The notes under the pieces were generated by a model that worked only from the letters and a program-made list of their open reading frames with translations, was not told where the DNA came from and did not search any database. A stretch of 64,000 nucleotides of DNA from Acidobacteriota bacterium (GTDB lineage: Bacteria; Acidobacteriota; Vicinamibacteria; Vicinamibacterales; CAVVIG01), in assembly GCA_040007095.1 (NCBI GenBank), contig JBDTVS010000127.1:18958-82957 (forward strand), written 5' to 3'. Below are positions 8,207-64,000 of this stretch, in pieces (the first letter of the stretch is position 1; each line of letters starts with the position of its first letter). The translations under genes were made by a program, and so were the position numbers.

Positions 8207-8295
8207 GAACAACGAGTTGGTAGCGGCGATCTCTGCGTGCGTCCGGTCGCACGCCATTTTGCCTGAGCGCGCTCCGAAAGAATCAAGGACTGACG

Positions 8296-8478
8296 ATGCC
8301 GAATCCAAAACGACGACACTCCAAAACGCGTACGGCCAAGCGCCGCACGCACGACGCGCTCAAGCCGATCGGCCTCTCCGAGTGCCCGCATTGTCACGAA
8401 CAAAAGCCGCCGCATCGCGTGTGCACCAACTGCGGGTATTACAAGGGACGACAGGCCCGCGCGGTCGATGAAGAATAG
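8296..8478 (+). CDS. rpmF: 50S ribosomal protein L32
   Basis: 60 aa. MPNPKRRHSKTRTAKRRTH...CPHCHEQKPPHRVCTNCGYYKG. Confidence 0.95.
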   Translation: MPNPKRRHSKTRTAKRRTHDALKPIGLSECPHCHEQKPPHRVCTNCGYYKGRQARAVDEE

Positions 8479-8568
8479 GCGCCGCGTGACCCTCCTCAGA
8501 CAATCGGACTCGATCGGCGCCCTGGATTCGCGTGTGATACGGGGCGTCGCCGCTGACGTGTTTCGCTC

Positions 8569-9495: not shown

Positions 9496-9606
9496 GGTGC
9501 CAGGAATGCACCCGGTCATCCCGTCATCTGGTCATTGATTCGTTCGATGAGCCGATCGATGGCGGCTTGGCCACAATCAAATGACCACATTCACGTTCGT
9601 GTGTGC

Positions 9607-10347: not shown

Positions 10348-10353
10348 GAGGGG

Positions 10354-10599
10354 TTGATGGCCGTAGCCGACAAAGTCAAGAGCATCATCGTGGAACAACT
10401 CGGAGTGGACGAGGAAGAGGTTACACCGGACGCGTCGTTCGTGGACGACCTGGGCGCAGACTCGCTCGACACGGTCGAGCTCGTCATGGCGTTCGAGGAG
10501 GAGTTCGGGATCGAGATCCCCGACGAGGATGCTGAAAAAATCACCCGCGTGAAAGAAGCGATCGAATACATCGACGCCCACGCGAAATCCAAAAAGTAG
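10354..10599 (+). CDS. acpP: Acyl carrier protein
   Basis: 81 aa. Phosphopantetheine site [21 protein letters not shown]. Confidence 0.95.
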
Positions 10600-10629
10600 G
10601 CCGCCACACATGGGCGCTTCCGCACGCAT

Positions 10630-11883: not shown

Positions 11884-11890
11884 TCCCGTG

Positions 11891-11999
11891 GTTGGGACCC
11901 GGAAAGAAACAAAGATGCCATCCCGAGCGCCGATGCTTGGTACCTTTGTTTCTTTCCGGGCCCTTACCTGGTGCCTGGGCACCGTAACCTCGTCCCAAC
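11891..11999. repeat. Nested hairpin element downstream of fabF
   Basis: Perfect 17-bp arms CCCGGAAAGAAACAAAG (11898-11914) and CTTTGTTTCTTTCCGGG (11944-11960). Outer pair GTTGGGAC/GTCCCAAC (11891-98 and 11992-99). Confidence 0.8.
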
Positions 12000-12048
12000 G
12001 GCCAGGCGACCCGGCGGTTCGCCCGATGACCAGCGGTCCAGTAACCAC

Positions 12049-12837
12049 ATGAAGATTGCGGTCTGTCTCAAGCACGTTCTCGCACGCGACAGCCAGCCGC
12101 GCCTCGACGACGGCAGAACCTGGATCCGCGAGTCGGACGCATCCTATGAAATGAACGAGCCGGACGCCTATGCGCTCGAGGAGGCGCTGCGGCTCAAAGA
12201 AAAGCGCGGGGGCGAAGTCGTCGTGTGCTCGGCTGGGCCCGCGCGCGTGGCGCAGGTGATTCGTGAAGCGCTGGCTCGTGGCGCCGACCGGGCGATCCAT
12301 GTCGAGGGCGACGCCCTCGACCGTGCCGATGCGTCGGTGGTGGCGGCGGCGCTGGCCGGCGCCATGCGCGATGAGCAGTTCGACCTGATCCTCACCGGCC
12401 TGCAGTCCGACGATCAGGGGCTGGCGCAGACCGGCGTCATCCTCGCGGAGCGTCTCGGGCTCTCCCACGCGACCATTGTCATGGAAGTCGACCTGGCCGA
12501 TCGGCCGGAGGCGGGATCGACGGCGACCGTTCGGGTCAAGCGGGAGCTCGAAGGCGGGTGGTTTCAATGGGTCGCGATGCCGTTGCCGGCGCTGCTGACG
12601 ATTCAAAGCGGGATCAATCAGTTGCGCTATGCGACGCTCAAAGGCATCATGGCGGCGAAGAAGAAGGAAATCCGCAAGGTATCGGCGGCTGCGAACGCGG
12701 CGGCTTCGGCCACGCAGAAGATTGTTGGTCTCTATGTGCCCGAGAAGGCAAAGCAGACCCAGATTATCGGCGGCTCACCCGCCGAGGCGGCCAAAGAACT
12801 GGTGCGCCGGCTGCGCGAGGATGCTCGGGTCATTTGA
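12049..12837 (+). CDS. etfB: Electron transfer flavoprotein beta subunit
   Basis: MKIAVCLKHV start and LRYATLKGIMAAKKKEI recognition-loop region. ATG 12049 inside the longer track ORF. Confidence 0.85.
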   Translation: MKIAVCLKHVLARDSQPRLDDGRTWIRESDASYEMNEPDAYALEEALRLKEKRGGEVVVCSAGPARVAQVIREALARGADRAIHVEGDALDRADASVVAAALAGAMRDEQFDLILTGLQSDDQGLAQTGVILAERLGLSHATIVMEVDLADRPEAGSTATVRVKRELEGGWFQWVAMPLPALLTIQSGINQLRYATLKGIMAAKKKEIRKVSAAANAAASATQKIVGLYVPEKAKQTQIIGGSPAEAAKELVRRLREDARVI

Positions 12838-12852
12838 ACCACGATGGATGGC

Positions 12853-12962
12853 TTTGAACCATAACGATCACCAGGCACACAAAGAAATCTCTGTTCGCGG
12901 TGATTCGCCTGGCAGAGATTCTGTGATCGAGCTTTGTGATCTTTGTGCGCTTTGTGGTTAAC
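12853..12962. repeat. CACAAAG word-repeat palindromic element (etfB-etfA gap)
   Basis: GAACCATAACGATCACCAGGCACACAAAG...GCTTTGTGATCTTTGTGCGCTTTGTGGTTAA. Related copy at 34698-34727. Confidence 0.7.
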
Positions 12963-12985
12963 AGGTTTGTGTCTCTCGTCATCGG

Positions 12986-13960
12986 ATGCCGAACATGATC
13001 TTAGTGGTCGCGGAGCAACGTGGCGGGACTCTGAATCGCGCGAGCTGGGAGACCATCGCCGCGGCGCAGCAGATTGGCGCGGGGACGGACATCGCGGTCG
13101 CGGTCGTCGGCGCCGACGTCGCTGCGGTTGCGGGAGAGCTGGCGGCAGCCGACGTCCGCGAAGTGCTTACGATCGACCATCCCGCCCTCGACCTGTACAC
13201 GTCCGACGGCTACACCGCGGCACTTCAGCAGTTGATTGAGCAGCTCTCGCCGTCCATGGTGCTGCTGCCCCACACCTACCAGACCCGCGACTTTGCACCA
13301 AAGCTGGCGGCTCGTCTCGATCGGGCACTCGTGACCGATGTGACCGGGATCAAGACGGCCGCGGGCGAGTTGGCGTTCGTGCGCCCGATGTTTCAGGGCA
13401 AGCTGACCGCCGACGTCGTGCCGCTTGGGCCGCCGCCGCATCTTGTCACGTGTCAGATTGGCGCCTTCCGCGCGGACCGGGCCGTCAGAGGCCAGTCGAC
13501 TGCGGCGATTCGCGCCATTGCCATCGACCTCGATCGTTCGCAGATACGCCAGCATCCGGAAGCGCCGTTTCAGGAAGCGAAACAAGCGGTCGATCTCTCG
13601 CAGGCGGAGCGGATTGTCTCCGTGGGCCGGGGGATCAAGGGCCAGGAGCATCTCCCGATCGCGCAGGCGCTTGCCGACGCGCTTGGTGCCGAGCTCGCCG
13701 CGTCGCGTCCGATCTGCGATGCGGGCTGGTTGCCGATGGAGCGCCAGGTCGGCAGCTCCGGTCAGACGGTCGCCCCGAAGCTGTACCTCGCGCTCGGGAT
13801 TTCCGGGGCGATCCAGCACCTGGTCGGCATCAAGGGTTCGCATACGATTGTGGCGATCAACAAGGACGCCGATGCGCCGATCTTCGAAGTCGCCGACTAC
13901 GGCATCGTCGGCGACCTGTTCGAAATCGTGCCGGCCCTGCTGGCGGCACTGAAAGCATGA
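12986..13960 (+). CDS. etfA: Electron transfer flavoprotein alpha subunit
   Basis: C-terminal FAD-binding signature [13 protein letters not shown]...[30 protein letters not shown]. Confidence 0.85.
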
Positions 13961-14044
13961 CGACACTCACCACGGAGCGCGCCGGGGCCCGCAGCCTGTG
14001 CAGCTGTGCTCTGGGGGTGCCGCAGTCCTCGCGTTGAGCGTTTC

Positions 14045-15877
14045 ATGGCCACGCTCGTTCTCTGGCTGCTTGTTGTCGTCTTCCTGGGGGTCTTCGCAGC
14101 CCAGGTCGCCGCGCGCGTCCGCCTGATTGCGGCTGCCCCCAATACCTTCGCGCTGGATCGGCTCGGGTTCCGGATTCAACGGGTGCTGCTCGACGTCGTG
14201 CTGCAGCGCGCGACGATCGCCGAGCGTCCGGTCGCCGGCGTTGCGCACGCGCTCGTCTTCTGGGGATTCCTCGCGTTTGGCGGCTACACGGCCGCGGAGT
14301 TTCTCAAGGGTCTGGGCATCGTCGATCTGACGCAGACCGGGTGGTTTGCGCTCTATCGATCGGTGCTGAGCGTCTTTGCGGGAGGCGTGCTCGCCGGCAT
14401 CGTCTACCTGCTGGTTCGGCGCGCCTTGGTCCGCCCTGTTGCGCTGGGCTCGAAGGTGTCGGTGGAATCGATCGTGATCGGTCTGTTCATCGTCATCTTG
14501 ATGACGACGTTTCTGCTCACCTACCGATGGGCGGACGCGAGCGCCGCCGGCCGCGTCAACTGGTGGGTGCACGCAATCGTGATTCTTGCGTTTCTTGCGC
14601 TAATCCCGTCGTCGAAGCATTTCCACCTGTTGCTCTCGCCGATCACCGTATTTCTGCGTTCACCGGTTCTCGGGAACGTGCCCAATCTTGATTTCGAAAA
14701 AGAAGAAGTCGGTCTCGAGACCGTCAAGGATCTCGGCAGCAAGAGCGTCCTGGACGCGCTCACCTGCGTCGAGTGTGGACGCTGCCAGGTGAATTGTCCG
14801 GCGTGGGCGTCCGGCAAGGAGTTGAACCCGAAGCTGATCGTTCTGCAAACGCAGGCGGCGCTGCTCGCCGGGGACCGCGAGAAGAAGCTCGCGGAGGTCT
14901 ACACCGAGAAGGCCCTCTGGCAGTGCACGACCTGCGGCGCCTGCGAGAACCAATGTCCCGTGGGCATCGAGCATCTCCCGATTCTCCTCGGCGCCCGGCG
15001 CGGCCTCGTATCCAATGGCGACGCGCCCGACAGCCTCGGCGGCGTCTACAACCACCTCGAGCGGCGAGGCAATATCTGGGGCCTCGGCTACGATCAACGC
15101 CAGAAATTCGTCGACTCCGCCGCTCTCGAGATATTCGATCCCGCCAGGCACGACGTCCTGGTCTGGCTGGGATGTGCCGGTGCATTCGAAGCCGACTACC
15201 AGAAATCCATGCGATCGCTGTTCGAGATCCTGCGTGGCCGGGGCGTGCGTTTCGGCGTGTTGTCGAAGGAGCGCTGCACCGGCGATCCCGCCAAGCGCAC
15301 CGGGAACGAGTACATGTTCCAGGAACTGGCGACCGGCAACATCGCGGATCTGAAGGCGGCCGGACCGAAGAAGATTCTGACGTCGTGTCCGCATTGCGTG
15401 AAGACCATCGGCGACGACTACCGGCGATTCGGCTACGACGTGGAGATCGTGCACTCGGCGGTGTTTGTCGACGAACTGCTGCGAGATAGTCGGATCGCGA
15501 CCGCCGCCTCGGAGCGCGTGACGTTCCACGACCCGTGCTACCTTGGCCGCTACGCGGGGAAGGTCGACGAGCCGCGCCGACTGCTGATGAGCCGTGGCGC
15601 CGAGATTGCCGAACCGGAGCGCAATCGCGAGAATCCTTTTTGCTGCGGTGCCGGCGGCGGCCTGCTGTTCGCCGACAAGGAAGAAGAGCCTGGCTCCCGC
15701 ATCAGCGATGTCCGGTTTGCACAGCTGCGCGCGACAGGTGCGGACACCGTCGTGACGGCATGTCCGTTCTGTTCGATCATGTTGAAGGGCGCGCACGCCA
15801 GTGCTGGCGCGGAGGGTGGGGAAGTCCGGTTCGTCGACCTGATGACCTACGTCAACGATCGGTTGAACCAGACGTGA
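14045..15877 (+). CDS. Membrane-bound Fe-S oxidoreductase (HdrD/GlpC/DsrK-like, ETF-associated)
   Basis: Hydrophobic multi-helix N-terminus. Two 4Fe-4S motifs (CVECGRCQVNCP, CTTCGACENQCP). Two Cys-rich CCG-type segments (SCPHC, FCCGAGGG, ACPFC). Immediately downstream of etfBA. Confidence 0.8.
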   Translation: MATLVLWLLVVVFLGVFAAQVAARVRLIAAAPNTFALDRLGFRIQRVLLDVVLQRATIAERPVAGVAHALVFWGFLAFGGYTAAEFLKGLGIVDLTQTGWFALYRSVLSVFAGGVLAGIVYLLVRRALVRPVALGSKVSVESIVIGLFIVILMTTFLLTYRWADASAAGRVNWWVHAIVILAFLALIPSSKHFHLLLSPITVFLRSPVLGNVPNLDFEKEEVGLETVKDLGSKSVLDALTCVECGRCQVNCPAWASGKELNPKLIVLQTQAALLAGDREKKLAEVYTEKALWQCTTCGACENQCPVGIEHLPILLGARRGLVSNGDAPDSLGGVYNHLERRGNIWGLGYDQRQKFVDSAALEIFDPARHDVLVWLGCAGAFEADYQKSMRSLFEILRGRGVRFGVLSKERCTGDPAKRTGNEYMFQELATGNIADLKAAGPKKILTSCPHCVKTIGDDYRRFGYDVEIVHSAVFVDELLRDSRIATAASERVTFHDPCYLGRYAGKVDEPRRLLMSRGAEIAEPERNRENPFCCGAGGGLLFADKEEEPGSRISDVRFAQLRATGADTVVTACPFCSIMLKGAHASAGAEGGEVRFVDLMTYVNDRLNQT

Positions 15878-16554
15878 GCGACCGAGACTGGCGCGCCTCC
15901 CGCCGCAAGCGCGTCGAGGCGGCTGCGATTGCCGTCGTCGGCTACCGGCTGGTCGCAATGCTGGCGTCGACGCTTCGCTGGCGGGAGGAGGGGCTGGAGC
16001 ACCTCGAGCGGGTGCTCGCCGGAGGCCGGCAGCCGATTATGGCGTTCTGGCACGGTCGCATCCTGCCCGCGACCTACTATTTTCGACGCCGCGGTATCGT
16101 GGTCATTACGAGCGAGAACTTCGATGGGGAGTGGATCGCAGGTATCATCCGGCGATTCGGCTATGGCACGGCGCGGGGGTCGACCTCGCGGGGAGCGCGC
16201 AAGGCGTTGCACCAATTGACTCGCGACATGGCGGCGGGGAAGCCGGCCGCGTTCACGCTTGACGGTCCGCGCGGTCCGGCGGGCGTCGCGCAACCGGGAG
16301 CGGTCTGGCTCGCGAAAGTGACCGGCAATCCTGTTCTGCCATTTCACATCGAGACCGATCGCCACTGGACACTTGAAAGTTGGGACCGCACGCAGATTCC
16401 CAAGCCGTTTGCGCACGCGTCGATCGTCGTCGGTGCGCCGATCGACGTGCCGCGCCGCGCCGACGACGCAGGCATCGAAAGCGCGCGCGTGATGCTGCAG
16501 GATCGGCTGCGTGCGCTCGAACACCGGGCCCTCGAGTTATGTCGCTCATTCTGA
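15874..16554 (+). CDS. DUF374 / lysophospholipid-acyltransferase-like protein
   Basis: FWHGRILPATYYFRRRGIVVITSENFDGEWIAGIIRRFGYGTARGSTSRGARKAL. GTGA start/stop overlap with the upstream gene. Confidence 0.7.
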   Translation: MSDRDWRASRRKRVEAAAIAVVGYRLVAMLASTLRWREEGLEHLERVLAGGRQPIMAFWHGRILPATYYFRRRGIVVITSENFDGEWIAGIIRRFGYGTARGSTSRGARKALHQLTRDMAAGKPAAFTLDGPRGPAGVAQPGAVWLAKVTGNPVLPFHIETDRHWTLESWDRTQIPKPFAHASIVVGAPIDVPRRADDAGIESARVMLQDRLRALEHRALELCRSF

Positions 16555-53167: not shown

Positions 53168-55564
53168 GTGCGCCGAAGCCTCTTCCGCTGGGGCTGCGAC
53201 GCTCGTTGCATCTCTTACGTCGTGCAAATCGTTGCTGCCGTCCCGGCCATCGGGCTGATCGCCGGCTCCGCCCTCGGCTACCTCCTTCCTGATCTTCCTT
53301 TCCGAATCGCCGTTGTCCTGCTCATCGCCGTGCTCGTCGCCGGCGTATGGGCGTGGCGTGCTGCGAGCAGCGTCGGCCTTGCGATCGCCGTCGGCACCGG
53401 GTTTTTCATCGGGGCAGCTCTGCTGTCTGCGGCCGCGTGGCGCGACGCGTGGCGGCCGCCTCTACGGATCGCGTTCGAGGATCTCGCGCGACGCGAACGT
53501 AGACTGGCCGCACAGGAAGGCAGGCGGCTGCCTGAAGACGACGAGGCTTTTGCGGTGGTGATGGGCACGCTGGGGACGGACGCCGCAGTCACGCCGACGG
53601 GCGTGTCCCTGAACGTCACGGTCGATGCCATTCAGTCGTACGGGGCCCGCGGAACGAATCAATCCTTTGCGGCGACCACGCCGGTTTCCGGAGGTGTTCA
53701 GGCCACCGTCGCCGGCGCAATCGGCCCCGAGCGTGCCGGCCAATGGCGCGCCGGCCGTCGCGTCCGCCTGCCGATCCAGCTTCATCGTCCGGCCCGGTAT
53801 CTCGATCCCGATGTCCCCGACGGGGAGCGCGCGCTGGCCCGACGCGGGACGACGCTGGTCGGCACCGTGAAAAGCGGAGCGCTGGTCGAGCTGATCGCGC
53901 GGGGATCGTGGGTTGACGAAGCGACCGCCGCGCTTCGCGCCGCGTCGCGACGCGCGATCGGCCAGGCTGTCGGTCCGTGGAGTCTTCGGTCTGCGGCGAT
54001 CGTTGACGCCATCGTGATCGGAGATCGTGCGGGGCTGGACGACGAAGTCCAACGACGGTTGCAGGAAGCAGGCACGTATCACGTGATCGCGATTTCGGGC
54101 GGCAACATCGCGATTCTCGCGGGCCTGATGCTCAGCGCGTTTCGTCTCGCTGGCTTCCTGGGTCGAACGGCGATGCTGGCGGCCATCGCGGTGCTGGTCG
54201 CCTACGATCGGCTCGTCGGCGGCGGGGCATCGGTCGACCGCGCGACACTGACCGCCGTCCTGTATTTTTCGGCGAGGGTGATCGATCAGCGGGGCCCGCC
54301 GCTCAACGCGCTGGGGTTCGTGGCCGTGTGTCTCGTGGCGGCCCGGCCGCTGTCTGTGCTCGACCCCGCGTTCGTGCTCACCTTCGGCGCGACGCTGGCC
54401 ATCGTGTGGATCGCGCCGTCTGTTCGCGCATGGCGAGTCCCGTCCCTGGTTGCGCCCGCGGCATCCATGCTGGCCGCCTCGGCCGCTACAGAGCTGATGT
54501 TGCTGCCCGTCGGCGCGTTGGCATTTGCGCGCGTGACGTTCGCGGGTCTGGTGTTGAACTTCGCAGCGATTCCGCTGATGGCGATCGTGCAGGTGGCAGG
54601 GATGGCGCTCGTACCGGTCTCGCTGGTGTCGACCCGAGCCTCCGGGCTGCTCGGGCGAGTGGCGCATGTCGCGGCGGAGGGCCTGGTCCGCAGTGCTGAG
54701 CTGGTCGAGTATCTGCCGGCCCTTTCCTTTCGTGTCGCTCCGCCCAGCTGGTGGGTCGTCGTCGCCTACTACGCGGCGATTGTCGCGTTGATCTTCTGGT
54801 GGCGGCGCCCGCGTTTACGTGTTGCCGCCCTTGGCGCGGCGGCCGGCGCCGCGATTTGGATCGTCGGCCAGCCATGGGCGTTCGCGGCGGGGCGCGGCGA
54901 CGGTCGGCTGCACCTGACGTTTCTCGACGTCGGGCAGGGCGACGCGGCGTTGATTCGGTTTCCGCGCGGCGCCGCCGTTCTCGTGGACGCCGGCGGGTTG
55001 ACCGGGTCGCGCTTCGACCTCGGCGACCGCGTCGTCGCACCGGTGCTGAGGATTCTGGGGGTGAGGCGGCTCGACGCCGTGGTGTTGACCCACGGCGATC
55101 CCGACCACGTGGGCGGCTTTCCGTCGGTGATTCGCGAGTTTCGGCCCCGTCAGGTGTGGGAGGGCATTGTGGTGCCGCGGTTCGAGCCGCTGCGCGCCCT
55201 GCAGCTCGGGGCCCAGGCGGTTGGCTCGACATGGCTCAATGTCAAAACCGGGGACCGTGCGTTCTTCGACGAGGTGGAGCTCGTGGTACGACATCCGGGC
55301 TTGCCGGACTGGGAGCGGCAGCGAGTCCGAAACGACGATTCGATTGTCATCGAACTCCGATGGCATGACGTCTCGGCGCTGCTGACCGGCGACATCGGCA
55401 GAGCCGTCGAACGCACGTTGTCGGCGGAACTGTCCCGGACCCCGATTCGCATCGTCAAGGTTCCACACCATGGCAGCGGAAATAGAATCTCTGGAAGTGC
55501 TAGCGAACACGGGGTTTGCTATTCGAAGGACGCTACGATTGCAGGGCCACGCTACACCGCATAA
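53168..55564 (+). CDS. comEC: ComEC/Rec2 DNA-uptake channel protein, C-terminus replaced at an insertion junction (probably disrupted)
   Basis: Polytopic competence core. MBL motifs LTHGDPDHVGG and VKVPHHGS. After HHGS (about 55480) the tail GNRISGSASEHGVCYSKDATIAGPRYTA has no ComEC character and the DNA becomes AT-richer. Confidence 0.8.
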   Translation: MRRSLFRWGCDARCISYVVQIVAAVPAIGLIAGSALGYLLPDLPFRIAVVLLIAVLVAGVWAWRAASSVGLAIAVGTGFFIGAALLSAAAWRDAWRPPLRIAFEDLARRERRLAAQEGRRLPEDDEAFAVVMGTLGTDAAVTPTGVSLNVTVDAIQSYGARGTNQSFAATTPVSGGVQATVAGAIGPERAGQWRAGRRVRLPIQLHRPARYLDPDVPDGERALARRGTTLVGTVKSGALVELIARGSWVDEATAALRAASRRAIGQAVGPWSLRSAAIVDAIVIGDRAGLDDEVQRRLQEAGTYHVIAISGGNIAILAGLMLSAFRLAGFLGRTAMLAAIAVLVAYDRLVGGGASVDRATLTAVLYFSARVIDQRGPPLNALGFVAVCLVAARPLSVLDPAFVLTFGATLAIVWIAPSVRAWRVPSLVAPAASMLAASAATELMLLPVGALAFARVTFAGLVLNFAAIPLMAIVQVAGMALVPVSLVSTRASGLLGRVAHVAAEGLVRSAELVEYLPALSFRVAPPSWWVVVAYYAAIVALIFWWRRPRLRVAALGAAAGAAIWIVGQPWAFAAGRGDGRLHLTFLDVGQGDAALIRFPRGAAVLVDAGGLTGSRFDLGDRVVAPVLRILGVRRLDAVVLTHGDPDHVGGFPSVIREFRPRQVWEGIVVPRFEPLRALQLGAQAVGSTWLNVKTGDRAFFDEVELVVRHPGLPDWERQRVRNDDSIVIELRWHDVSALLTGDIGRAVERTLSAELSRTPIRIVKVPHHGSGNRISGSASEHGVCYSKDATIAGPRYTA

Positions 55565-55576
55565 ACACGCATAGTT

Positions 55577-56317
55577 TTGCAAGGTCGCGCGGACCCGATG
55601 GGCACAAAAACAGTCACAATGGATACAATCGCTCTGGCGATGGCCCACAGAAATCGGCTCCCTGAACCGAAGCGCTTTCAATCTGTTGTTGAATGGCAGT
55701 TTCCGCGTGCTCATCGATATTTTGACGACTGTGGCAAATTGATCGCAGTCATCGAGCAGGCATTCCCGGGGCTCATCTGTCAGGGAATGTCGCCGGACGG
55801 ATTTCGCTTCGTGGGCTCGTCGCATGGAATCACCGCCGCACATTTTTACTGGGAGAAGGCCTCCGTTTCGCAGGTTGGCAAGGGTGACGCCGGGCTTGCT
55901 GACGCCACGGTTCGTTTCTGGTCGCTTGTGCAGGCGGGCTTAGGGATTTCAAGCGTTAGTCGACTTGGTCACCGAACCTGGCTCCTGTATGAAACCAACA
56001 CGCAAGCGGATGCGAATCACTGGCTCAGCGGTTTCAGGTTTCTAGCGTTTGATCGCGAGGGAGGGGACGTGCTGGGCACCCCTGACGCTGGCGGCTCGGT
56101 AATACGGACCAAGCTTGAGGTCGGAGGGCGACGCTTGCGGCTTGAGGTGAACGCGGGCACTGCCAGCATCAATCAAAAACAAGTGCACGGCGTATTCGTC
56201 GACGCTGACATTGTGCTTGAGCCGCTGGACTCTACAGAGAATCTGGGCGAATTCGTTTCGTGGAACGGAACGTTCATTCGTGAAAACATCGAACCTTGGT
56301 TTCGGGGAAAGAAATAA
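55577..56317 (+). CDS. Hypothetical protein, TIGR04255-like by my reading
   Basis: 246 aa (TTG 55577; ATG alternatives at 55598 and 55619). N-terminal LPEPKRFQSVVEWQF...IAVIEQAFPGL resembles the uncharacterised TIGR04255 family. First gene inside the junction. Confidence 0.4.
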   Translation: MQGRADPMGTKTVTMDTIALAMAHRNRLPEPKRFQSVVEWQFPRAHRYFDDCGKLIAVIEQAFPGLICQGMSPDGFRFVGSSHGITAAHFYWEKASVSQVGKGDAGLADATVRFWSLVQAGLGISSVSRLGHRTWLLYETNTQADANHWLSGFRFLAFDREGGDVLGTPDAGGSVIRTKLEVGGRRLRLEVNAGTASINQKQVHGVFVDADIVLEPLDSTENLGEFVSWNGTFIRENIEPWFRGKK

Positions 56318-56320
56318 AAG

Positions 56321-56749
56321 ATGGCGAATCAGGGATCGGCTGCAGTCTTCAATTTTCCACGGCGTGACACTTCCGCTCCATCCGACGTGTCCGCGCCTGT
56401 TTCGTCGCCCACAAGGTTGACCGGCGCAACCGCGCCGGACTTTCAGCCGACGGTGGCGAGCCAGTCGAGCGCCGCCCGGCCCGTTCAACTGGCAACGATC
56501 CAGAATCTCGGGAACGGTCATGTTTTGGTTCATCCGCTATACGTGAGCATCGATCAGTCCGGTGATGAATGGTTTGCGATGTCGCACGACTTGGGTTTGG
56601 TGGGTCGCGGAGAATCGGATCTCGATGCGATCGACGACCTGCGCGCTAGCATTCGAGAGTTATGGGAATCGCTCACCGAAATGCGGGACAACCTCGGACC
56701 ACTGCTTCGTGACCAGCTCAGATTTCTCGAGCGACTTTCGGGTGTGTGA
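56321..56749 (+). CDS. HicB/UPF0150-fold antitoxin-like protein with disordered N-terminus
   Basis: Starts 3 nt after the upstream stop. Low-complexity S/P/A N-terminus, then VSIDQSGDEWFAMSHDLGLVGRGESDLDAIDDLRASIRELWESL. Confidence 0.5.
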   Translation: MANQGSAAVFNFPRRDTSAPSDVSAPVSSPTRLTGATAPDFQPTVASQSSAARPVQLATIQNLGNGHVLVHPLYVSIDQSGDEWFAMSHDLGLVGRGESDLDAIDDLRASIRELWESLTEMRDNLGPLLRDQLRFLERLSGV

Positions 56750-56752
56750 TCA

Positions 56753-57034
56753 GTGCCGCTGACCGTCCGGGAGTTCGAGATAGTCATCGGCAAACTGCAC
56801 ATGGTGGCGCGCGAAAGTAAACACAGGTTTGTCTGGCTAGAGCACGAGGGGAAGAAGATCCTTTACACGGAGCGCTCGCACGGTCGAGGCGATATCGGTC
56901 GCGTCGAACACGCCATCCGGCGGCAGCTTAAGGTGAACTCTGCCCAGTTTCGTGATCTCGTCAACTGTCCAATGACGAGAGAGTTGTACATCGAACATCT
57001 GAAGAAGATCGGCGCGATCGACGCCGACAACTGA
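56753..57034 (+). CDS. HicA/YcfA-like putative toxin
   Basis: GTG start 3 nt after the upstream stop. 93 aa. FEIVIGKLHMVARESKHRFVWLEHEGKKILYTERSHGRGDIGRVEHAIRRQLKV matches the HicA layout but lacks the canonical GSH. Confidence 0.4.
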   Translation: MPLTVREFEIVIGKLHMVARESKHRFVWLEHEGKKILYTERSHGRGDIGRVEHAIRRQLKVNSAQFRDLVNCPMTRELYIEHLKKIGAIDADN

Positions 57035-57141
57035 GTAACGCTCCTCAAATTTCGACGGCTAGGGTAGCTCCCGAAGAGTCGGTCTCCGTCCGACCTGCCG
57101 TCGATTCCTCCTACCCCACGGAGCTGCTTACGGAGGGCAGG

Positions 57142-57786
57142 ATGCCAAGTGGTCACGACGAACGTAAGCGTGCTGGGTCCGGCGAGTACGTCTTTGTCGG
57201 CACCAACGCGGTGGTCCGCACCACATTCCTGAACACCGTCTTCACGCACGCGCGCTTTGTGTTTGATGAGCTCCTCGCTCTGAAGGGTCATGTCTCAACG
57301 GAAGACTTCGACCCACTAACTGGTGAGACTCGAGTGTTGTTGTTGGCCTGGGCCTACAAGTGGGGGCTCACTGATCAATGGGCTTTGGATATGGCTCGGG
57401 CGACGTTGGCATGGCACATCGATAACCCAGATGATCCCCCGAGTTGGTGGCACGGCGTCCGTTCTGACGGCGGTTGGATTCCTACTGCCTGGCCGACTTT
57501 GACCTGGGACCCGATGAAGGATCGTGAGGACGTATTCAAGCGGCAACGGGTGAAGGCCTACATTGCGGAGGTTCGCGCTTTCGCTGAGAGCAACGGCTTC
57601 ATCCGGACACCGCAGAAGCCGCAACTCTTCCAGCACTGCCGATGGGTGGTGCATTACCAGATCGAACGCTTGAGTTACGCAGATATCGAGGCCCGGTACG
57701 GAAATGACGACCACGACCGCATATCAACGATCGAAAAAGCGGTGCGCTCGACGGCTCGTCTCGCCGGGTTGACACTCCGGAAGTAG
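57142..57786 (+). CDS. Hypothetical Trp-rich protein with C-terminal HTH-like segment
   Basis: ATG preceded by GGAGGGCAGG. 214 aa. C-terminal LSYADIEARYG...STIEKAVRSTARLAGLTL resembles a sigma-70 region 4 / LuxR-type HTH. Confidence 0.5.
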   Translation: MPSGHDERKRAGSGEYVFVGTNAVVRTTFLNTVFTHARFVFDELLALKGHVSTEDFDPLTGETRVLLLAWAYKWGLTDQWALDMARATLAWHIDNPDDPPSWWHGVRSDGGWIPTAWPTLTWDPMKDREDVFKRQRVKAYIAEVRAFAESNGFIRTPQKPQLFQHCRWVVHYQIERLSYADIEARYGNDDHDRISTIEKAVRSTARLAGLTLRK

Positions 57787-57844
57787 AACGCGCAGTTTCT
57801 GCTTCCGTGATGTTCTGCTCGCTGTGCGCGAAACTGCACGAATC

Positions 57845-58054
57845 ATGTTGCAGTCACAACAGCCGAACGTCCATGCCCTCCTAATTCGCACTCGCGACGT
57901 CGCAACCATCCTCGGGGTTTCAGAACGGCAAGTTCAGCTTTGGACCCGTGCTGGCCAGCTACATCCGGTGCGAATCCCTGGGATTCGGGCCACTCGGTTC
58001 CAGCGGTCAGAGGTTGAGGCGCTCGCCGCGACGTGGTGCGAAGCCGCGTCGTGA
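57845..58054 (+). CDS. Excisionase/AlpA-family HTH DNA-binding protein
   Basis: LIRTRDVATILGVSERQVQLWTRAGQLHPVRIPGIRATRFQRSEVEAL, an HTH_17/excisionase-like pattern. Alternative start at 57824. Confidence 0.7.
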   Translation: MLQSQQPNVHALLIRTRDVATILGVSERQVQLWTRAGQLHPVRIPGIRATRFQRSEVEALAATWCEAAS

Positions 58055-58479
58055 GCGCTGTTCCTGAGCGCCAACTCCCGAATAACCAAGCTGCAGAACG
58101 CTCGGTTCTCGCGGCGATCCTGATGGACACCAAGGCCATCATCGTCGCGATGGCCATCATCGTCGCGATGGCCATCATCGTCGCCGAGGACTTCTGGAGG
58201 ACGCATCACCAGTGGCTCTTCGCCGCGATGCTTCGAATTCATCATCGCGGGCTGCGGATCGACCTGGTGACGTTGCGTGAAGAGCTGTCCCCGGCGCGAC
58301 TCGACGAGATCGGTTTGGCGTACATCACGGCGCTGATCGATGGTGTGCCGCTCGGAAACGTCGACCAGCACGCGCGGATCGTGAAGTCGATCCGCCGCGA
58401 CGATGCCTCACACGTGAACGACGAACAACCTGAACCACGGGTAGCGGGCGATCCGACGCGGAAGGACGCGGCGGCGTAA
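58051..58479 (+). CDS. DnaB-helicase N-terminal-domain-only protein
   Basis: LPNNQAAERSVLAAILMD...EDFWRTHHQWLFAAMLRIHHRGLRIDLVTLREEL...IGLAYITALIDGVP matches the DnaB N-domain. No helicase domain. GTGA overlap with the upstream gene. Confidence 0.7.
   Translation: MSAVPERQLPNNQAAERSVLAAILMDTKAIIVAMAIIVAMAIIVAEDFWRTHHQWLFAAMLRIHHRGLRIDLVTLREELSPARLDEIGLAYITALIDGVPLGNVDQHARIVKSIRRDDASHVNDEQPEPRVAGDPTRKDAAA
58135..58185 (+). repeat. In-frame 18-bp tandem repeat (2.8 copies) inside the DnaB-N gene
   Basis: GCCATCATCGTCGCGATG twice, followed by GCCATCATCGTCGCC. Encodes AIIVAMAIIVAMAIIVA. Confidence 0.95.
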
Positions 58480-58543
58480 CTAACACATGAACGCCCGCAC
58501 GGGGCAAACCGGCGGGCGTTCTTTTCGATGGGGGACGGCGACG

Positions 58544-58831
58544 ATGGGGAATTGGAATATACGCAATCGAGGCGCTCACGTCAAATTGCGCACAGCGATT
58601 GCGACCTGGCGCGGCAACCTGATTGACCTCGACATCGTCTGCGACGACAAACGGCAGGCGGTCGAGCAGCGCGTTGAAGAACTGCGGCTGGCGGTTCGTG
58701 AACGCGACCGCGCCGCCAAGCACCTCGAATACTTGATCGAGATGCACGACGAGCGCGAGGCCGTCGCCGAATGGTTCGGCCCAGAGATCGCGGCGCAATT
58801 CGTGGTGAGCCTACAAGGCTCCGCGTTATGA
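58544..58831 (+). CDS. Hypothetical protein
   Basis: Track ORF 58487..58831. ATG 58544 has a G-rich upstream stretch. Stop overlaps the primase ATG (ATGA). No recognisable family. Confidence 0.4.
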   Translation: MGNWNIRNRGAHVKLRTAIATWRGNLIDLDIVCDDKRQAVEQRVEELRLAVRERDRAAKHLEYLIEMHDEREAVAEWFGPEIAAQFVVSLQGSAL

Positions 58832-61128
58832 ACGGCGACACGCTGCGAGCGCGGGAATTCATCGCGGCCGTCTTTGACGGCGTTGACGGATTTCTGAACG
58901 TCCGCACGCTGCCACCTGTCGAGCAGACATTTGTGCCGATCGCGGACTTCGATGCCCTGGAGGCGTTTGTGAAGTCACGACGGGATCGCAACGCGTACAT
59001 CGGCGCTGCGGCTCGTGTCAGCAACACCGATGGATCGCTCGCCGGTTGTGGTGCGTTACCGGCGGTGTTCGCGGATCTCGACTTCAAGGACTTCGCGAAT
59101 GAGGGAGAGGCCCGCCGCCAACTCGAGGCTTCACCGTTGGCGCCAAGCGTCGTGATTCAGAGCGGGGGCGGACTCCAGCCCTGGTGGTTACTCAGGGAGC
59201 CGATTGATCTCCAGCGCGAGGCCCCTAACGCTAAGTCGCTCCTTCGGCGAATTGCGATTTCGCTCCATGCCGACATGGCGGCGGCGGAACCCGCACGCAT
59301 CCTGCGGCTACCGAATACGCAGAACTTCAAATACCTGCCACCCAGGCGCGTGAAGGTGGAGGTATTCGAGCCTGGCCGCCGGTACAACCTCGGCGATTTC
59401 GAGGAGTACCTTCCCGAGGCACCACGACCAGTTCCGCCGTCGCGATCTGTCTCGTCACCGACAGATCCAGATCGCCTCGTGCACCGCGCTCGACGCTACC
59501 TCGCGGAAACTCCTGGCGCGATTCAGGGCCAGGGTGGCGATCATCACACGTTCGTTGTCGCCTGCCGCTTGGTTCGCGACTTCGCCCTCGACGACACGAC
59601 CGCGCTCGACATCTTGCGAGACTGGAATCAGCGCTGTGTCCCCCTTTGGTCAGATCGCGAACTCGAGACAAAGATCTCGAACGCGCGAGACTACGGGAAC
59701 GGATCGATCGGTACAAAACTCAATGAATCTCAGTGCCCGGCGTTGACGACAGAGGCAGCGACCCACACGCCCGCACCACCCTCGGCGCCTCGCACGTTCA
59801 ACTTCAGCGACACCGGCAACGCTGAATACTTTGCGTGGCGACATGGCGCTGACGTGCGCTTTGATTTTCGACGCGATCGCCCACTGGTGTGGCAACAAAA
59901 CCGCTGGCGGCCGGACGGAGATGCCGAGATTCGGCGACTCGCGAAGTCGGCGATGCGTCAACGGTTTCGTGACGCGGCGGCGTTGGAGGATCCAGAAGCC
60001 CGCCGGCGTGCCGCGAAGTGGGCCACGGATAGTGAGTCGCGCACGCGGCTTGACTCGTTGCTCTATCTCGCCCAGGCCGAGCCGCCGATCGCGGATCCGG
60101 GTGACGCCTGGGATAAGCAGTCGACGTTACTCAACGCGAGCAACAGCACCGTCGACCTGACTACCGGCGTGTCGCGCCCGTCGCGACGTGAGGACCGGAT
60201 CACCTTGTGCACGGGCGCGGAATATCACCCGAGCGCCCGATCGGAACTATGGGACCACGCGCTCCGCAGCATCCTCGTCGATGACGACGTCATCGACTTT
60301 TTTCAGGTCGCGGTCGGCTATTCGGCGACTGGCGACACGAGCCGGGACTGCTGGTTTCTCGGCTGCGGATCGGGACGCAACGGGAAAGGAACGCTCTTTC
60401 AGCCTATTCGACACGCGCTCGGCGACTACGCCCTCGAACTGCCAGGGTCCGTTTTCGATCTGCGCAGCGAGCGCTCCCCGTACGAGCTCGCGTATCTGCC
60501 TGGGAAGCGCTTCGTGACCTCGTCCGAAGCTGGTGACACGCTCCGCTTGCACCACGATCGGATCAAGCAATTGAGCGGCGGCGACTCGATGAGCGCTGCG
60601 AACAAGTACGAAAAGGCGTTCGAGTTCGAGCCGGACTGCAAACTGTGGTTGGCATGCAACAAACGCCCGCGAGTCACCGATGACACAGCCGCGTTCTGGG
60701 CACGCGTGTTTCTGATCCCGTTCACGCAGTCGTTCGTCGGCAGAGAAGACCGTACGCTCCGTCCCGCGCTCGTCCAAGACCGCCGGCACCAAGCGGCCGT
60801 GCTGGCCTGGATTGTCCGAGGCGCCGTGCGCTATCACGCTGAAGGTCTGGAACCACCCGCGAGTATTCGGGCGGCGACGGCTGCATACCGGGAAGACTCG
60901 GACCCACTCGCCGCGTTCCTTGAAGAAACCTGCGACCTTGAGCCGACGGCCGAAGTCGGCGCGAAGGAGTTGTATGAGCACTACGCGCGGTGGGCCGATG
61001 CGCAGCACTTTAGCCCCAAAGAACGGCTGTCCGCGACGATGTTTGGCCGCCTCATTAGCGGTCGATTTGAACGCGAGCATACGCGGAGCGGGAAGGTCTA
61101 CAAAGGGCTCGCGAGACGGCATGTGTGA
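58828..61128 (+). CDS. Bifunctional primase-polymerase / D5-P4-family SF3 helicase
   Basis: AEP motifs AVFADLDFKD, QSGGGLQPWW, ILRLPNTQNFKY. D5_N-like FSDTGNAEYFAWRHG...WQQNRW. Walker A GCGSGRNGKGT. 766 aa. Confidence 0.85.
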   Translation: MNGDTLRAREFIAAVFDGVDGFLNVRTLPPVEQTFVPIADFDALEAFVKSRRDRNAYIGAAARVSNTDGSLAGCGALPAVFADLDFKDFANEGEARRQLEASPLAPSVVIQSGGGLQPWWLLREPIDLQREAPNAKSLLRRIAISLHADMAAAEPARILRLPNTQNFKYLPPRRVKVEVFEPGRRYNLGDFEEYLPEAPRPVPPSRSVSSPTDPDRLVHRARRYLAETPGAIQGQGGDHHTFVVACRLVRDFALDDTTALDILRDWNQRCVPLWSDRELETKISNARDYGNGSIGTKLNESQCPALTTEAATHTPAPPSAPRTFNFSDTGNAEYFAWRHGADVRFDFRRDRPLVWQQNRWRPDGDAEIRRLAKSAMRQRFRDAAALEDPEARRRAAKWATDSESRTRLDSLLYLAQAEPPIADPGDAWDKQSTLLNASNSTVDLTTGVSRPSRREDRITLCTGAEYHPSARSELWDHALRSILVDDDVIDFFQVAVGYSATGDTSRDCWFLGCGSGRNGKGTLFQPIRHALGDYALELPGSVFDLRSERSPYELAYLPGKRFVTSSEAGDTLRLHHDRIKQLSGGDSMSAANKYEKAFEFEPDCKLWLACNKRPRVTDDTAAFWARVFLIPFTQSFVGREDRTLRPALVQDRRHQAAVLAWIVRGAVRYHAEGLEPPASIRAATAAYREDSDPLAAFLEETCDLEPTAEVGAKELYEHYARWADAQHFSPKERLSATMFGRLISGRFEREHTRSGKVYKGLARRHV

Positions 61129-61239
61129 CGGGTTTACCCCAATGAATGACGGGTTTTTTGATGATTCCCTAAAGTCTCCTATGAACAGCACTTTGAAGAA
61201 GTTTACGGAAACAGCCTCAAACCCGTCACAACCCGTCAC
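61125..61239. repeat. Iteron cluster (candidate origin or packaging site)
   Basis: GTGACGGGTT at 61125-61134 and ATGACGGGTT at 61146-61155. Two tandem inverted copies AACCCGTCAC at 61220-61229 and 61230-61239. Begins at the primase-helicase stop codon. Confidence 0.5.
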
Positions 61240-61610
61240 AACTGGCGACGATGGCGGACGTCGCCCCGAGTATCACGCTTGAGCACGGCTGGGCCTGCCA
61301 AGGCTGCGGTCTCGTGAACGACGAACAGGTTATTGCTGGTAATAACCTGCCACGAGGGCAGCGCTGATGTCGTCGATGGAGTTGTGCTGGCTTGGCACCA
61401 ATCATGCCGATGGGCCGGGGATAAATGAAGGGTCCGTCGATCACCTGGTTACCATTCTGGAGGACTGTGTGTTTTTTGTCGCCAAAACGTGAATCTCTCG
61501 GGCATTAAGGCCAGGTGAGGGCAGCGGCAGTGACACGACATTACGGCGACGACCACGTTACCGACTCCGGTGACGTGCGGGTCGGTCAGTGGAAAGGACG
61601 GGGACAAACT

Positions 61611-62075
61611 GTGGCGGGAAGGCCAGGACGTAGCGGCGGACACAACAAGAAGAGCTTGCTGGAGCTCCAGGCAAGCGGTGGATTTCGAGCCGACAGGCAT
61701 GCGCATTTGCTGCCGAAGTCGCCTGTCGAGCCATCCCCGGCGGTCAATCCGCTCGATCGGTTCCTCCGACGCCGCGAAGGTGTTCAGCCTTTGATTCCAC
61801 CGGCGTCTGAAGCCGGTTGGCAGCCGACACGGGGCGACCTAGCGGCCCTGGGGACACACGGAAAGACGTTCGTCCGCTCGATGATCGTCACCTTCGAGTT
61901 CGCGGCCACCGACGGCCTCGTGCTACTCGAAGCCGGGCATGCGCTCGACGAGGTTACGCGGTGGCGTGAACGCTCGCGCAGAGAGGATGCCCACAACGCT
62001 CAAGGCTCCCGGCTCACGCTCGGCTGGCAGCGACAATTCGCGGCGCTGCTGCAGCAGTTGAAAGGTTCTCGATGA
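61611..62075 (+). CDS. Terminase small subunit-like protein (P27/Terminase_4-like)
   Basis: GTG 61611 chosen. N-terminal GRPGRSGGHNKKSLLELQASGGFRADRH resembles the GRPPK...L.GNPGKR start of P27-family TerS. ATGA coupling to the next ORF. Confidence 0.35.
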   Translation: MAGRPGRSGGHNKKSLLELQASGGFRADRHAHLLPKSPVEPSPAVNPLDRFLRRREGVQPLIPPASEAGWQPTRGDLAALGTHGKTFVRSMIVTFEFAATDGLVLLEAGHALDEVTRWRERSRREDAHNAQGSRLTLGWQRQFAALLQQLKGSR

Positions 62076-62302
62076 TGAAACCTCGACGGGCGCCGGCGGC
62101 GCCACTTTCACGCGGCGTGATCGCTATTTGCCTCGGCGGTTGGTCCGCGCTGGCACTGGAGGACTCAGACTCGGAGGCCTTCGATTTGTTCGAAACCAAC
62201 CTGGCCGGCGTCGCGCATCTGTGGCGCCTGCATGAGGCGTTCTTGTTGAGCGAGGCGGCGCGGCGCGGCATCACGCCGGCCTGGCGGCCCGATCGCACGT
62301 GA
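62072..62302 (+). CDS. Hypothetical small protein
   Basis: 76 aa. ATG overlaps the upstream stop (ATGA). No recognisable family. Confidence 0.35.
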   Translation: MMKPRRAPAAPLSRGVIAICLGGWSALALEDSDSEAFDLFETNLAGVAHLWRLHEAFLLSEAARRGITPAWRPDRT

Positions 62303-62335
62303 AATTAAACCCCATCTGAAGGAGACGAACACATT

Positions 62336-62851
62336 ATGACGACCCGAACAGAAATCGGTTCACTCCCGGTCGTGGATCAGCACCCCTTGGTGCTGGAGCA
62401 CGGAAGGAAACGTGTGCAATTAGCGACGGCCCTGACGGAGGCGCTCGCGGAGCACGGGCGACTCGTCGATTTTCGAGCACCCCTGAAACAGCAAATAGTC
62501 GCCCAACTCCTCGGCGACGGCGGTGGTCAACCGGGAGATGCGGCGGCGCGATTGACGAAGCTGGAGACCGACATATTAAGCGTCGGCAACCAGGTGGCGT
62601 CCATCAAAGAGGCCCTCGTGATCTGCGATGGGCGCCTGGTCGCAGCCCGCACGCAGGCTGAAACGGAAAGACGCGAGCAGGCGCGCAGTATTGCGCGGGA
62701 GATCGCCGGCCAAATGCAGCCGATCCTTGACAAGCTTTTGGCGCTCAACGAGCAATTGGTCGTCGTCTCGGCGGCGCGCGGCTTCGACGGTCGCTACACG
62801 CCGTTAGATCCTGGGCTGATGCTGGAATTTCGCCGTCAGCTCGGCGATTAA
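62336..62851 (+). CDS. Hypothetical coiled-coil protein
   Basis: Strong RBS (AAGGAGA about 10 nt before the ATG). 171 aa with a helical heptad-like centre. Confidence 0.6.
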   Translation: MTTRTEIGSLPVVDQHPLVLEHGRKRVQLATALTEALAEHGRLVDFRAPLKQQIVAQLLGDGGGQPGDAAARLTKLETDILSVGNQVASIKEALVICDGRLVAARTQAETERREQARSIAREIAGQMQPILDKLLALNEQLVVVSAARGFDGRYTPLDPGLMLEFRRQLGD

Positions 62852-62866
62852 CGAGGTCACAGCCAA

Positions 62867-63346
62867 GTGAACACATCGGCGTTAGTCGACGTTGGCGTGC
62901 GAGTGTTCGCGTTTCACGAGGCCGGTCACGGGTGCGTCGCCACGGCGCGGGGCGTGCAGGTCCGCTGCGTGGCAGTCGACGACGTGGCGGCTCCCGAACT
63001 CGGCCGCGTCGTGACGCGGCAGAAATTCGGCTTGATTCCCTGCGAGGATCTCGTGCTTTTTTTCCTCGCTGGCGGCGTGGCGCAAGAACGATACATGCGG
63101 TCAGTTGGGTTGAGCGATCACGATCATGGTGACGCGACTGATGTCGCCGACGCGCGGATCTTGCTCACCGAGCCTGGTGACCACCGCTATTCAGCCGCTG
63201 TCGATCGAGAGTTGGCGGTATGGCGTCGCCGCACTGAGCTCGCGGTCGCCGAGCACTGGAACTGGATTCACCGCGTGGCCGATCAACTCGTCTCTCGCCG
63301 TTGGTTGAGCGGCGACGACATCGTTCACCTGCGACGAGGAGTGTAA
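62867..63346 (+). CDS. Stand-alone FtsH-type (M41-like) zinc metallopeptidase domain
   Basis: 159 aa. FAFHEAGHGCVA (HExxH), LAGGVAQERY (compare FtsH GGRAAEE), GDATDVADA, and a C-terminal helical part like the FtsH C-terminus. No AAA module. Confidence 0.6.
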   Translation: MNTSALVDVGVRVFAFHEAGHGCVATARGVQVRCVAVDDVAAPELGRVVTRQKFGLIPCEDLVLFFLAGGVAQERYMRSVGLSDHDHGDATDVADARILLTEPGDHRYSAAVDRELAVWRRRTELAVAEHWNWIHRVADQLVSRRWLSGDDIVHLRRGV

Positions 63347-63351
63347 CCGAT

Positions 63352-63795
63352 ATGCCAGACGAAGTTCTCGACGCCAAGGCGTCGACTAAAGAAGTCGTGA
63401 CGCTCGCGCAAGCGAAAGAAAACATGGCGAAGCGCGCCGTGTGGCTCAAGGCAAATGGCCACCGACCGGTCTCGCACGAACAGCTCGACACGATCACAGA
63501 CCAGATTGCTGATGCGATTATCGCCGTCAATGTCTTCGCGCAGTCGATAAACGCGAAGAACATCGAACGCAACGAGAAGATCGCGGCGCTCGAAACAAAG
63601 GTCGCCGAACTCGAGACGCGGACGGCCGTCGACTACGTTGGTATCTGGCTCGAGAAATATTCGTACAGGAAGGGCCAGATCGTAACGCACAAGGGCACGA
63701 TCTGGTTTTGTAGGGTCGACTACACCATGGAGAAGCCTGGGACGTCGACCGACTGGCAACTGATGGTGAAAAACCAGGAGCGGCCCAACCGATGA
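63352..63795 (+). CDS. Hypothetical coiled-coil protein with CBM5/12-like C-terminal motif
   Basis: IERNEKIAALETKVAELETR coiled coil, then YRKGQIVTHKGTIWFCRVDYTMEKPGTSTDWQLMVK. Confidence 0.5.
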   Translation: MPDEVLDAKASTKEVVTLAQAKENMAKRAVWLKANGHRPVSHEQLDTITDQIADAIIAVNVFAQSINAKNIERNEKIAALETKVAELETRTAVDYVGIWLEKYSYRKGQIVTHKGTIWFCRVDYTMEKPGTSTDWQLMVKNQERPNR

Positions 63796-64000
63796 ACATC
63801 GATCAAGCGGTGGCGCAAGTTGCGCGGCAACTCGACGGCATCTGCGCAGCACGGCTCGATGCGTTCGAGCTCTCGCTCATCGAATGCGGCGTCAACCCCA
63901 ATGGTGGCGCCGACGTCTCAGGCCCACCACCTGGTGAGCTGCCCGCCGGCGTCTGTTGGAAACGGCTGCCCTTCGATGAGGCGGTCGCCCTCCAGAGAGC
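63792..64000 (+). CDS. Hypothetical protein, N-terminal part (runs off window)
   Basis: ATGA overlap with the upstream stop. My translation (MNIDQAVAQVARQLDGICAARLDAFELSLIECG...) stays open to position 64000. Confidence 0.4.
   Translation, partial: MNIDQAVAQVARQLDGICAARLDAFELSLIECGVNPNGGADVSGPPPGELPAGVCWKRLPFDEAVALQR

Follow-up and report, generated by a model that had tools for sequence, protein, structure and literature searches.

A phage-related island very probably integrated by a tyrosine integrase into the HHGS codons of comEC in an uncultured acidobacterium

Mobile elements are known to occupy genes that bacteria use for natural transformation. In streptococci, comEC/celB carries insertions of the prophages Phi1207.3 (Tn1207.3) and Phi10394.4 and of Tn1207.1 (PMC4260502; reviewed in PMC12378983), and insertion sequence (IS) elements are known in comEC of Piscirickettsia. 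Listeria prophages of the A118/phi10403S type inactivate the competence gene comK, which is restored upon excision, a behaviour called ‘active lysogeny’ (PMC7397523), and transformation genes are likewise occupied by the AbaR-type islands in comM and by prophages in comFA, comGA and pilQ. Such occupation has been interpreted as protection from chromosomal curing (PMC12378983; PMC11441513, PMC4774983 and PMC12637031). Here, we analyse a 64-kb stretch of DNA (positions 1 to 64,000, hereafter ‘the window’) from an Acidobacteriota metagenome-assembled genome (MAG), in which comEC, the gene for the DNA uptake channel, is cut short between positions 55477 and 55478 and followed by genes of phage or plasmid type. 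This junction is, very probably, the left attachment site (attL) of a phage-related integrative island inserted by a tyrosine integrase at the codons for His-His-Gly-Ser (HHGS) of comEC.

Like Phi1207.3, Phi10394.4 and Tn1207.1, the island would be a phage-related element integrated site-specifically within the coding sequence of comEC, a gene essential for DNA uptake. The streptococcal elements, however, reside in Firmicutes, measure 52–59 kb (7.2 kb in the case of Tn1207.1), carry resistance genes and use a GA dinucleotide site, whereas the acidobacterial island appears to rely on a tyrosine integrase, on a core that measures ~12 nt or more and on a phage-type attachment site (attP) able to copy ~27 nt of the target; unlike in the streptococci, this target consists of the HHGS active-site codons. 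In the case of the Listeria prophages, the target is the regulator comK rather than the channel, and reversible, non-lytic excision has been demonstrated, whereas here it is only possible. The insertions in comM, comFA, comGA and pilQ involve other genes, hosts and recombinases, the AbaR islands being transposons. The island in comEC is, nevertheless, a further case of the known tactic whereby mobile elements settle in competence genes. Full-text literature searches retrieved neither a description of such elements from Acidobacteriota nor any mention of an integrase targeting HHGS codons.

The comEC open reading frame (ORF; 53168..55564, + strand) encodes a protein of 798 amino acids (aa), deposited as MEP7308197.1 and assigned to an Acidobacteriota MAG contig of 99,419 bp. 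Pfam searches recognized DUF4131, Competence and Lactamase_B domains, of which the channel domain is present (PF03772, 158 bits, profile positions 2–269 of 270) and Lactamase_B is matched up to position 173 of 196 in its profile; both motifs, LTHGDPDHVGG and VKVPHHGS, are found. On the TIGR00361 profile, the missing positions 614–663 of the 663 (17–613 are covered) bring the score of the protein down to 176.3 bits, short of the cut-off of 190.05; the intact orthologue P0002 reaches 241.8 bits over positions 15–663. The comEC gene of the window is a truncated member of the ComEC/Rec2 (TIGR00361) family, and a warning is due with respect to its annotation, the gene being labelled at NCBI as a plain ComEC/Rec2 family protein. 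What is left of the host gene (53168..55477, + strand) amounts to 770 codons, comprising the N-terminal DUF4131/OB region, the competence channel domain and the metallo-beta-lactamase (MBL) nuclease domain, of which approximately the first three quarters are retained, ending at HHGS. The upstream gene order, carB-comEC, is the same as at the orthologous locus L082. As regards the 5' end of the gene, the annotated start (53168–53221 region) lies 18 codons ahead of the start common to all 10 aligned orthologues, and the true start is probably near 53222.

The loss of homology is abrupt. In a protein alignment, 10 orthologues (61%–88% identity, 825–862 aa) can be followed without a break up to VKVPHHGS, that is, residue 770, encoded up to nt 55477; past HHGS, the orthologues read LTSSTPEFVRAIAPRVAVVSAGRANHFGHPVPEVLERYR..GAEVFRTDQDGAVTV.., whereas the window reads GNRISGSASEHGVCYSKDATIAGPRYTA followed by a stop codon. 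Among the best 120 homologues, the conserved tail is absent only from the protein of the window itself, the tails of the other 119 close homologues comprising 75–91 conserved residues, or 251 in a single case (median 79 aa). In a DNA alignment with the two nearest orthologous genes, identity stops between 55477 and 55478, and the truncated gene is fused to a read-through of 28 unrelated codons plus a stop (55478..55564, + strand), apparently encoded by the island, in which the GC content at third codon positions (GC3) is 0.45. The GC content changes from 0.6575 over positions 1–55477 to 0.606 over 55478–64000, the first two kilobases of the island having values of 0.566 and 0.572, as compared with a mean of 0.657 (standard deviation 0.016) for 1-kb segments of the host DNA. 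The maximum-likelihood change point falls at 55220, with a log-likelihood gain of 40.5 and a 2-lnL interval of 55117–55485 that spans the junction, and GC3 drops from 0.79–0.86 in carB and comEC to 0.60–0.77 in the ORFs of the island. In ~25 orthologous loci where comEC is uninterrupted, it is followed by (PDDEXK_3)-MazG-DUF1844-MBL-RibF-CysS, and none of MazG, DUF1844, MBL, RibF and CysS is encoded in the window. A preliminary description of this DNA, made from the sequence alone, had recognized the competence core and MBL motifs of ComEC, a tail lacking the end of the ComEC domain and a shift to AT-richer DNA, all of which are upheld by the domain and motif searches, the orthologue and homologue comparisons (no relative ends in the tail found in the window) and the step in GC and GC3; the break, which it placed right after HHGS, was correct to within a few bases, the HHGS codons occupying 55466–55477.

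Counterparts of the missing end of the gene are found in related genomes. We screened 80 genomic loci encoding a ComEC C-terminus for those devoid of the rest of the gene, which led to L002, a locus of an Acidobacteriota MAG (CAVRXZ010000030.1) with only ComEC residues 747–837. The fragment is preceded by a small helix-turn-helix (HTH) gene and a gene for a tyrosine integrase, the stop codon of which is located 22 nt before CACCACGGAAGC (the HHGS codons). Similarly, the integrase genes of L086/L087 (P0186) and L088 (P0197) end 21–24 nt ahead of comEC 3' fragments that begin with CACCATGGCAGC or CATCACGGCAGC. At all three sequenced right attachment sites (attR; L002, L086/L087 and L088), the fragment is intact, uninterrupted and in frame, starts with CAYCAYGGMAGC and is followed by the genes expected downstream of comEC, (PDDEXK_3)-MazG-(DUF1844)-MBL-RibF-CysS, although DUF1844 was not detected in L086/L087. 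A further contig, encoding the integrase P0184 and assessed by gene order only, carries HTH_17, integrase, a 58-aa ORF, PDDEXK_3 and MazG.

The left and right junctions coincide on the same stretch of comEC. The attL core of the window, CACCATGGCAGC (55466..55477, + strand; codons His-His-Gly-Ser), is the last sequence shared with intact comEC and was found once in the window when the + strand was searched. The 12-nt HHGS stretch, in the form CAYCAYGGMAGC, is common to this site, to the attR cores of L002, L086/L087 and L088 and to the attP core of an apparently unintegrated relative described below. Identity with the host gene ends right after AGC in the attL of the window and starts at the first His codon in the attR sites. 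Across 26 intact loci, the sequence at this site is AAGGTN CCN CAYCAYGGNAGC CTNACNTCNAGC, which is near-invariant in nucleotides because it encodes K-V-P-H-H-G-S-L-T-S-S. The codon following HHGS encodes Leu in 112 out of 118 intact homologues, and takes the form CTN in each of the 26 intact loci, as opposed to CGG (Arg) in two attR sites (L002, 10013–10015; L088, 8271–8273) and GGC (Gly) in the third (L086, 11183–11185); in the attL of the window (55478–55480), GG is found at this codon. The bases after HHGS at occupied sites may stem from attP or, alternatively, from differences between the hosts, and the rare intact genes with Arg or Gly after HHGS (1 of 118 each) could be scars of past integration and excision.

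The relative in question, L090 (JGI 3300072492, Ga0642625_21986; 1–16307), is a 16.3-kb contig with element genes to the left as well as to the right of the gene for the integrase P0194. Those to the left encode, among others, a small terminase and two tape-measure-like proteins, and the right-hand side starts with two reverse-strand ORFs and continues, after the attP region, with unknown genes and those for an HTH_17 protein and an AAA_25 helicase. At position 12016, L090 carries CATCACGGCAGC within TCAAGGTGCCACATCACGGCAGCCTGAC, a stretch that reproduces ~27 nt of the comEC site and is not surrounded by further comEC sequence. We read this stretch as the putative attP of a related element in its unintegrated state, whose gene order, once circularly permuted, is that of the integrated form in the window; the two ends of the contig do not overlap. 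Read by eye, the 28-codon tail of the window resembles neither the tails of the orthologues nor the read-through of the L090 attP. The resemblance lies farther to the right: a conserved block of 28 nt, GGACCCGATGGGCACAAAAACAGTCACA (55591..55618, + strand), located ~114 nt to the right of the core in the window, has a near-identical counterpart in L090 (~12142–12169), where the distance rightwards from the attP core is ~115 nt (blastn, window 55563–55618 against L090 12115–12169, 78.6%). The DNA around the block is unrelated, and the proteins encoded there have nothing in common past MGTK(T/A)VT. The block might serve as an arm-type site for the integrase, as an operator or as a conserved translation start (ATG 55598). 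No convincing arm-type repeats emerged when the surroundings of the junction were searched for them.

Searches with the L002 integrase returned a clade of ~380-aa proteins that includes P0195 (MEP7308217.1, 378 aa, labelled ‘site-specific integrase’), encoded on the 99,419-bp source contig of the window, 20 protein accessions after ComEC. The accessions on this contig run from ComEC (197) through the primase (204) to the integrase (217), and, judging from this order, the integrase gene sits ~20 genes past the truncated comEC, beyond base 64000. P0195 contains the PF00589 catalytic domain, and R224, K247, H309, R312, H335 and Y344 (R-K-H-R-H-Y) are invariant in all 12 aligned integrases, which identifies the protein as a tyrosine integrase. 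Its relatives at comEC-linked loci and in L090 are ~50% (L002), 51% (P0184), 59% (P0186), 71% (P0197) and 77% (P0194 of L090) identical to it. A metagenome scan with the L002 integrase yielded a single locus, L083, adjoining a tRNA-Ala gene and not comEC. Among viral contigs, nothing was found with the primase, the first island ORF or the L002 integrase as queries, and the integrase alignment, used in the same way, retrieved only relatives with 24%–29% identity. The distant relatives L094 and L083 (36%–40% identity to the L002 query) adjoin genes for tRNA-Ala(CGC) at 11188–11263 and 2072–2147, respectively, from which it follows that specificity for comEC is confined to the ~380-aa clade; P0207, encoded on a 5.35-Mb contig, belongs to the tRNA-Ala-linked sister clade. 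These relationships suggest that the comEC-targeting clade may have arisen from tRNA-targeting integrases. The preliminary description had proposed a site-specific insertion into the 3' part of comEC and named a downstream integrase as something to look for; such an integrase is indeed encoded on the source contig, although not in the window, and, together with the lack of a relative with the same tail, the GC step and the comEC remnants in relatives, it supports the proposal.

The events at the locus can be envisaged as follows. The attP of the island, carrying a copy of the comEC stretch, would have recombined with the chromosomal site (attB), splitting comEC into the 770-codon 5' piece with 28 island codons that is seen in the window and a 3' fragment of ~80 codons, which would have been moved to the far end of the island, just past the integrase gene, as it is in the relatives. 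From attL onwards, the island would consist of unknown genes, an excisionase-like HTH gene, DnaB_N, a P4-type primase, genes resembling those for packaging or tails and, lastly, the integrase and attR. Based on the number of accessions and the layout of L090, it probably spans ~17–18 kb with ~20 genes; this estimate is rough because the islands have little sequence in common beyond the integrase and excisionase genes (int and xis), the att sites and one late gene. The integrase and the excisionase-like protein could excise the island and rebuild comEC.

The same attL might, alternatively, belong to a complete temperate prophage of 35–45 kb. On the phage-like contig L085, genes for a large terminase and a prohead protease accompany that for a relative of the primase, L090 encodes a small terminase and tape-measure-like proteins, and ~35 kb of the source contig lie outside the window, some of them perhaps upstream. 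However, merely 20 protein accessions separate ComEC from the integrase, a count tempered by the fact that the integrase gene need not be the last one, two more preceding attP in L090. Furthermore, L090 accommodates a replication module, the small terminase, the integrase and attP within 16.3 kb, and neither a capsid nor a large terminase family was recognized on it, the portal-like match being a weak one. We regard a full-size prophage as unlikely, although it is the likeliest of the alternatives, and the element, which may be a small phage, a satellite or a defective element, looks like an island of roughly 20 genes.

Far less plausible is non-specific damage, that is, irreversible loss of the end of comEC by deletion or illegitimate recombination beside foreign DNA, with no att site involved. 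Such an event would be compatible with the single visible junction and with a 28-codon tail of arbitrary sequence, but the breakpoint falls on the recurrent att core, an attP mimic of the site is present in an unintegrated relative and intact comEC 3' fragments accompany the related integrases, making this explanation highly improbable. Least credible of all is an assembly chimera, in which a host contig ending in comEC was joined to a phage or plasmid contig unrelated to it: the DNA comes from a MAG and several related contigs break inside the island, so that the region is evidently hard to assemble, but the break lies on the very 12 nt with which the comEC fragments begin beside related integrases at three sequenced loci, an integrase of the same clade is encoded on the same contig and the left arm of the island corresponds to the right arm of attP in L090, with equal spacing from the core, none of which would be reproduced by a random misjoin or, for that matter, by a non-specific deletion.

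Several considerations, nonetheless, weigh against integration by the tyrosine integrase at HHGS with the outcome described here. In this genome, attR and the displaced part of comEC would be located past base 64000 and are deduced from the relatives, the integrase gene is placed by accession order, and no member of the family has both junctions on one contig. Moreover, the assignment of the integrase to the source contig relies on the identical length of 99,419 bp and on consecutive accession numbers. Finally, the truncated ComEC retains all predicted metal ligands, and residual function is possible.

The left 8.5 kb of the integrated island (55478..64000, + strand), delineated by the GC/GC3 shift and its ORFs, run past the end of the window. 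The genes that we judged to be real are all on the + strand, as had been noted from the sequence alone, and include those for a P4-family primase and an excisionase-type HTH protein. The first ORF (55577..56317, + strand) encodes 246 aa from TTG, or, probably, starts at ATG 55598, and has no match in Pfam or PHROG. The HTH protein (57824..58054, + strand; 76 aa) matches HTH_17 of Pfam with 38.9 bits (cut-off 27), its score on the TIGR01764 ‘excise’ profile being 25.0 bits, below the cut-off of 28.8. It is 49%–55% identical to small HTH proteins of L002, L086 and L090, and in both L002 and L086 the gene directly upstream of the comEC-linked integrase encodes a homologue, which makes it a candidate recombination directionality factor. 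It is followed by a protein consisting solely of a DnaB N-terminal domain (58033..58479, + strand; 148 aa; PF00772, E=2.9e-20) and by a P4-family phage/plasmid primase-helicase (58828..61128, + strand; 766 aa; MEP7308204.1, an exact match to P0121), which matches D5_N (PF08706), DUF5906 (PF19263) and Pox_D5 in Pfam as well as the PHROG DNA primase family (E=4.9e-99) and reaches 205.9 bits on TIGR01613 (cut-off 108.7), as expected of the P4 family. Farther downstream, an ORF with a tail-fibre- or portal-like C-terminal segment (63301..63795, + strand; PHROG, E=1e-5 to 5e-4) shares 30% identity across 109 aa with an ORF of L090 that ends at 2340, the fourth gene after the small terminase. The other ORFs of the island matched no known family in Pfam or PHROG; those at 56321–56749 and 56753–57034, considered as a HicB/HicA pair, were dropped, neither database providing a match. 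No tRNA gene was found within the window, and tblastn searches of it revealed neither an integrase gene nor the displaced comEC 3' fragment. The DnaB_N ORF contains a perfect 18-nt tandem repeat (58134–58184; 2.8 copies of GGCCATCATCGTCGCGAT), which adds a repeated AIIVAM peptide.

In small size and in the combination of an integrase with an HTH protein of excisionase or AlpA type and a primase of the P4 family, the island resembles P4-like satellites and phage-inducible chromosomal islands, and its relatives also share with those elements a small terminase and the lack of an obvious full structural module. This likeness is one of gene content, the late genes of the island being located outside the window. 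Two relatives of the primase, encoded by a P4-like island at another site (L084) and a phage fragment (L085), were set aside, as they have the primase alone in common with the island and are not flanked by pieces of comEC.

The integrated copies in other genomes display some features of their own. Four of the five attR-type contigs, all except L086, end inside the island, 0.2–13 kb from the integrase, possibly because the assembly was broken by a mixture of populations, some carrying the island and others not. IS elements have entered some of the islands, namely, IS21-type IstA/IstB in L002 (1746–4006) and IS110- and IS3-type transposases in L086 (535–9595), the latter island also carrying cargo-like genes (MerR, queuosine synthesis and aldose epimerase); some copies thus look old or decaying. 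The comEC gene of L009, which is 38% identical overall and 86% identical in the C-terminus, was considered as a recombination scar and ruled out, the pattern being due to frameshifts in a long-read assembly: tblastn matches to comEC are split over frames in both L009 (7737–10195) and L029 (7629–10228), pointing to indel errors in long-read MAG contigs. The frameshift in the L002 integrase is probably an error of the same kind.

The consequences for DNA uptake are likely to be severe. Solved ComEC nuclease domains extend ~66 residues past HHGS (PDB chains 30bt_A and 9ic4_A), and the truncation removes approximately a quarter of the nuclease fold, including the conserved NHFGHP, while leaving the channel and the earlier metal-binding motifs in place. 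By residue count in the alignment, the Ser of HHGS is equivalent to S728 in the enzyme from Moorella glycerini, described as a putative DNA-binding residue in the paper on that enzyme. Mutations in the nuclease domain's active site abolish transformation in Legionella (PMC12455585) and severely inhibit it in Bacillus (PMC8579336). Given that the last quarter of the fold is gone and that transformation is abolished or severely inhibited in active-site mutants, DNA uptake is probably lost or badly impaired in cells carrying the island. Excision could restore comEC, a possibility raised by the excisionase-like gene and by the intact, in-frame 3' fragments in three relatives.

The occupation of competence genes is the main evidence for a conflict between transformation and integrated parasites, and the known examples come almost exclusively from cultured pathogens. 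The present case carries the pattern to uncultured soil Acidobacteriota and to the gene for the DNA channel itself, and provides a defined recombination system, with sequences of attB, attP, attL and attR, an integrase clade and a candidate excisionase. As the target consists of invariant active-site codons, one integrase clade can serve hosts whose ComEC proteins are only ~55%–60% identical. It is conceivable, if still speculative, that the ~380-aa integrase clade of soil Acidobacteriota (Vicinamibacteria-like) has specialized on the K-V-P-H-H-G-S codons and that the islands deliberately disable transformation to escape chromosomal curing, restoring it on excision. If so, the target would be near-universal in this group of Acidobacteriota and hard to mutate, and natural transformation would be both active and under conflict in uncultured soil bacteria.

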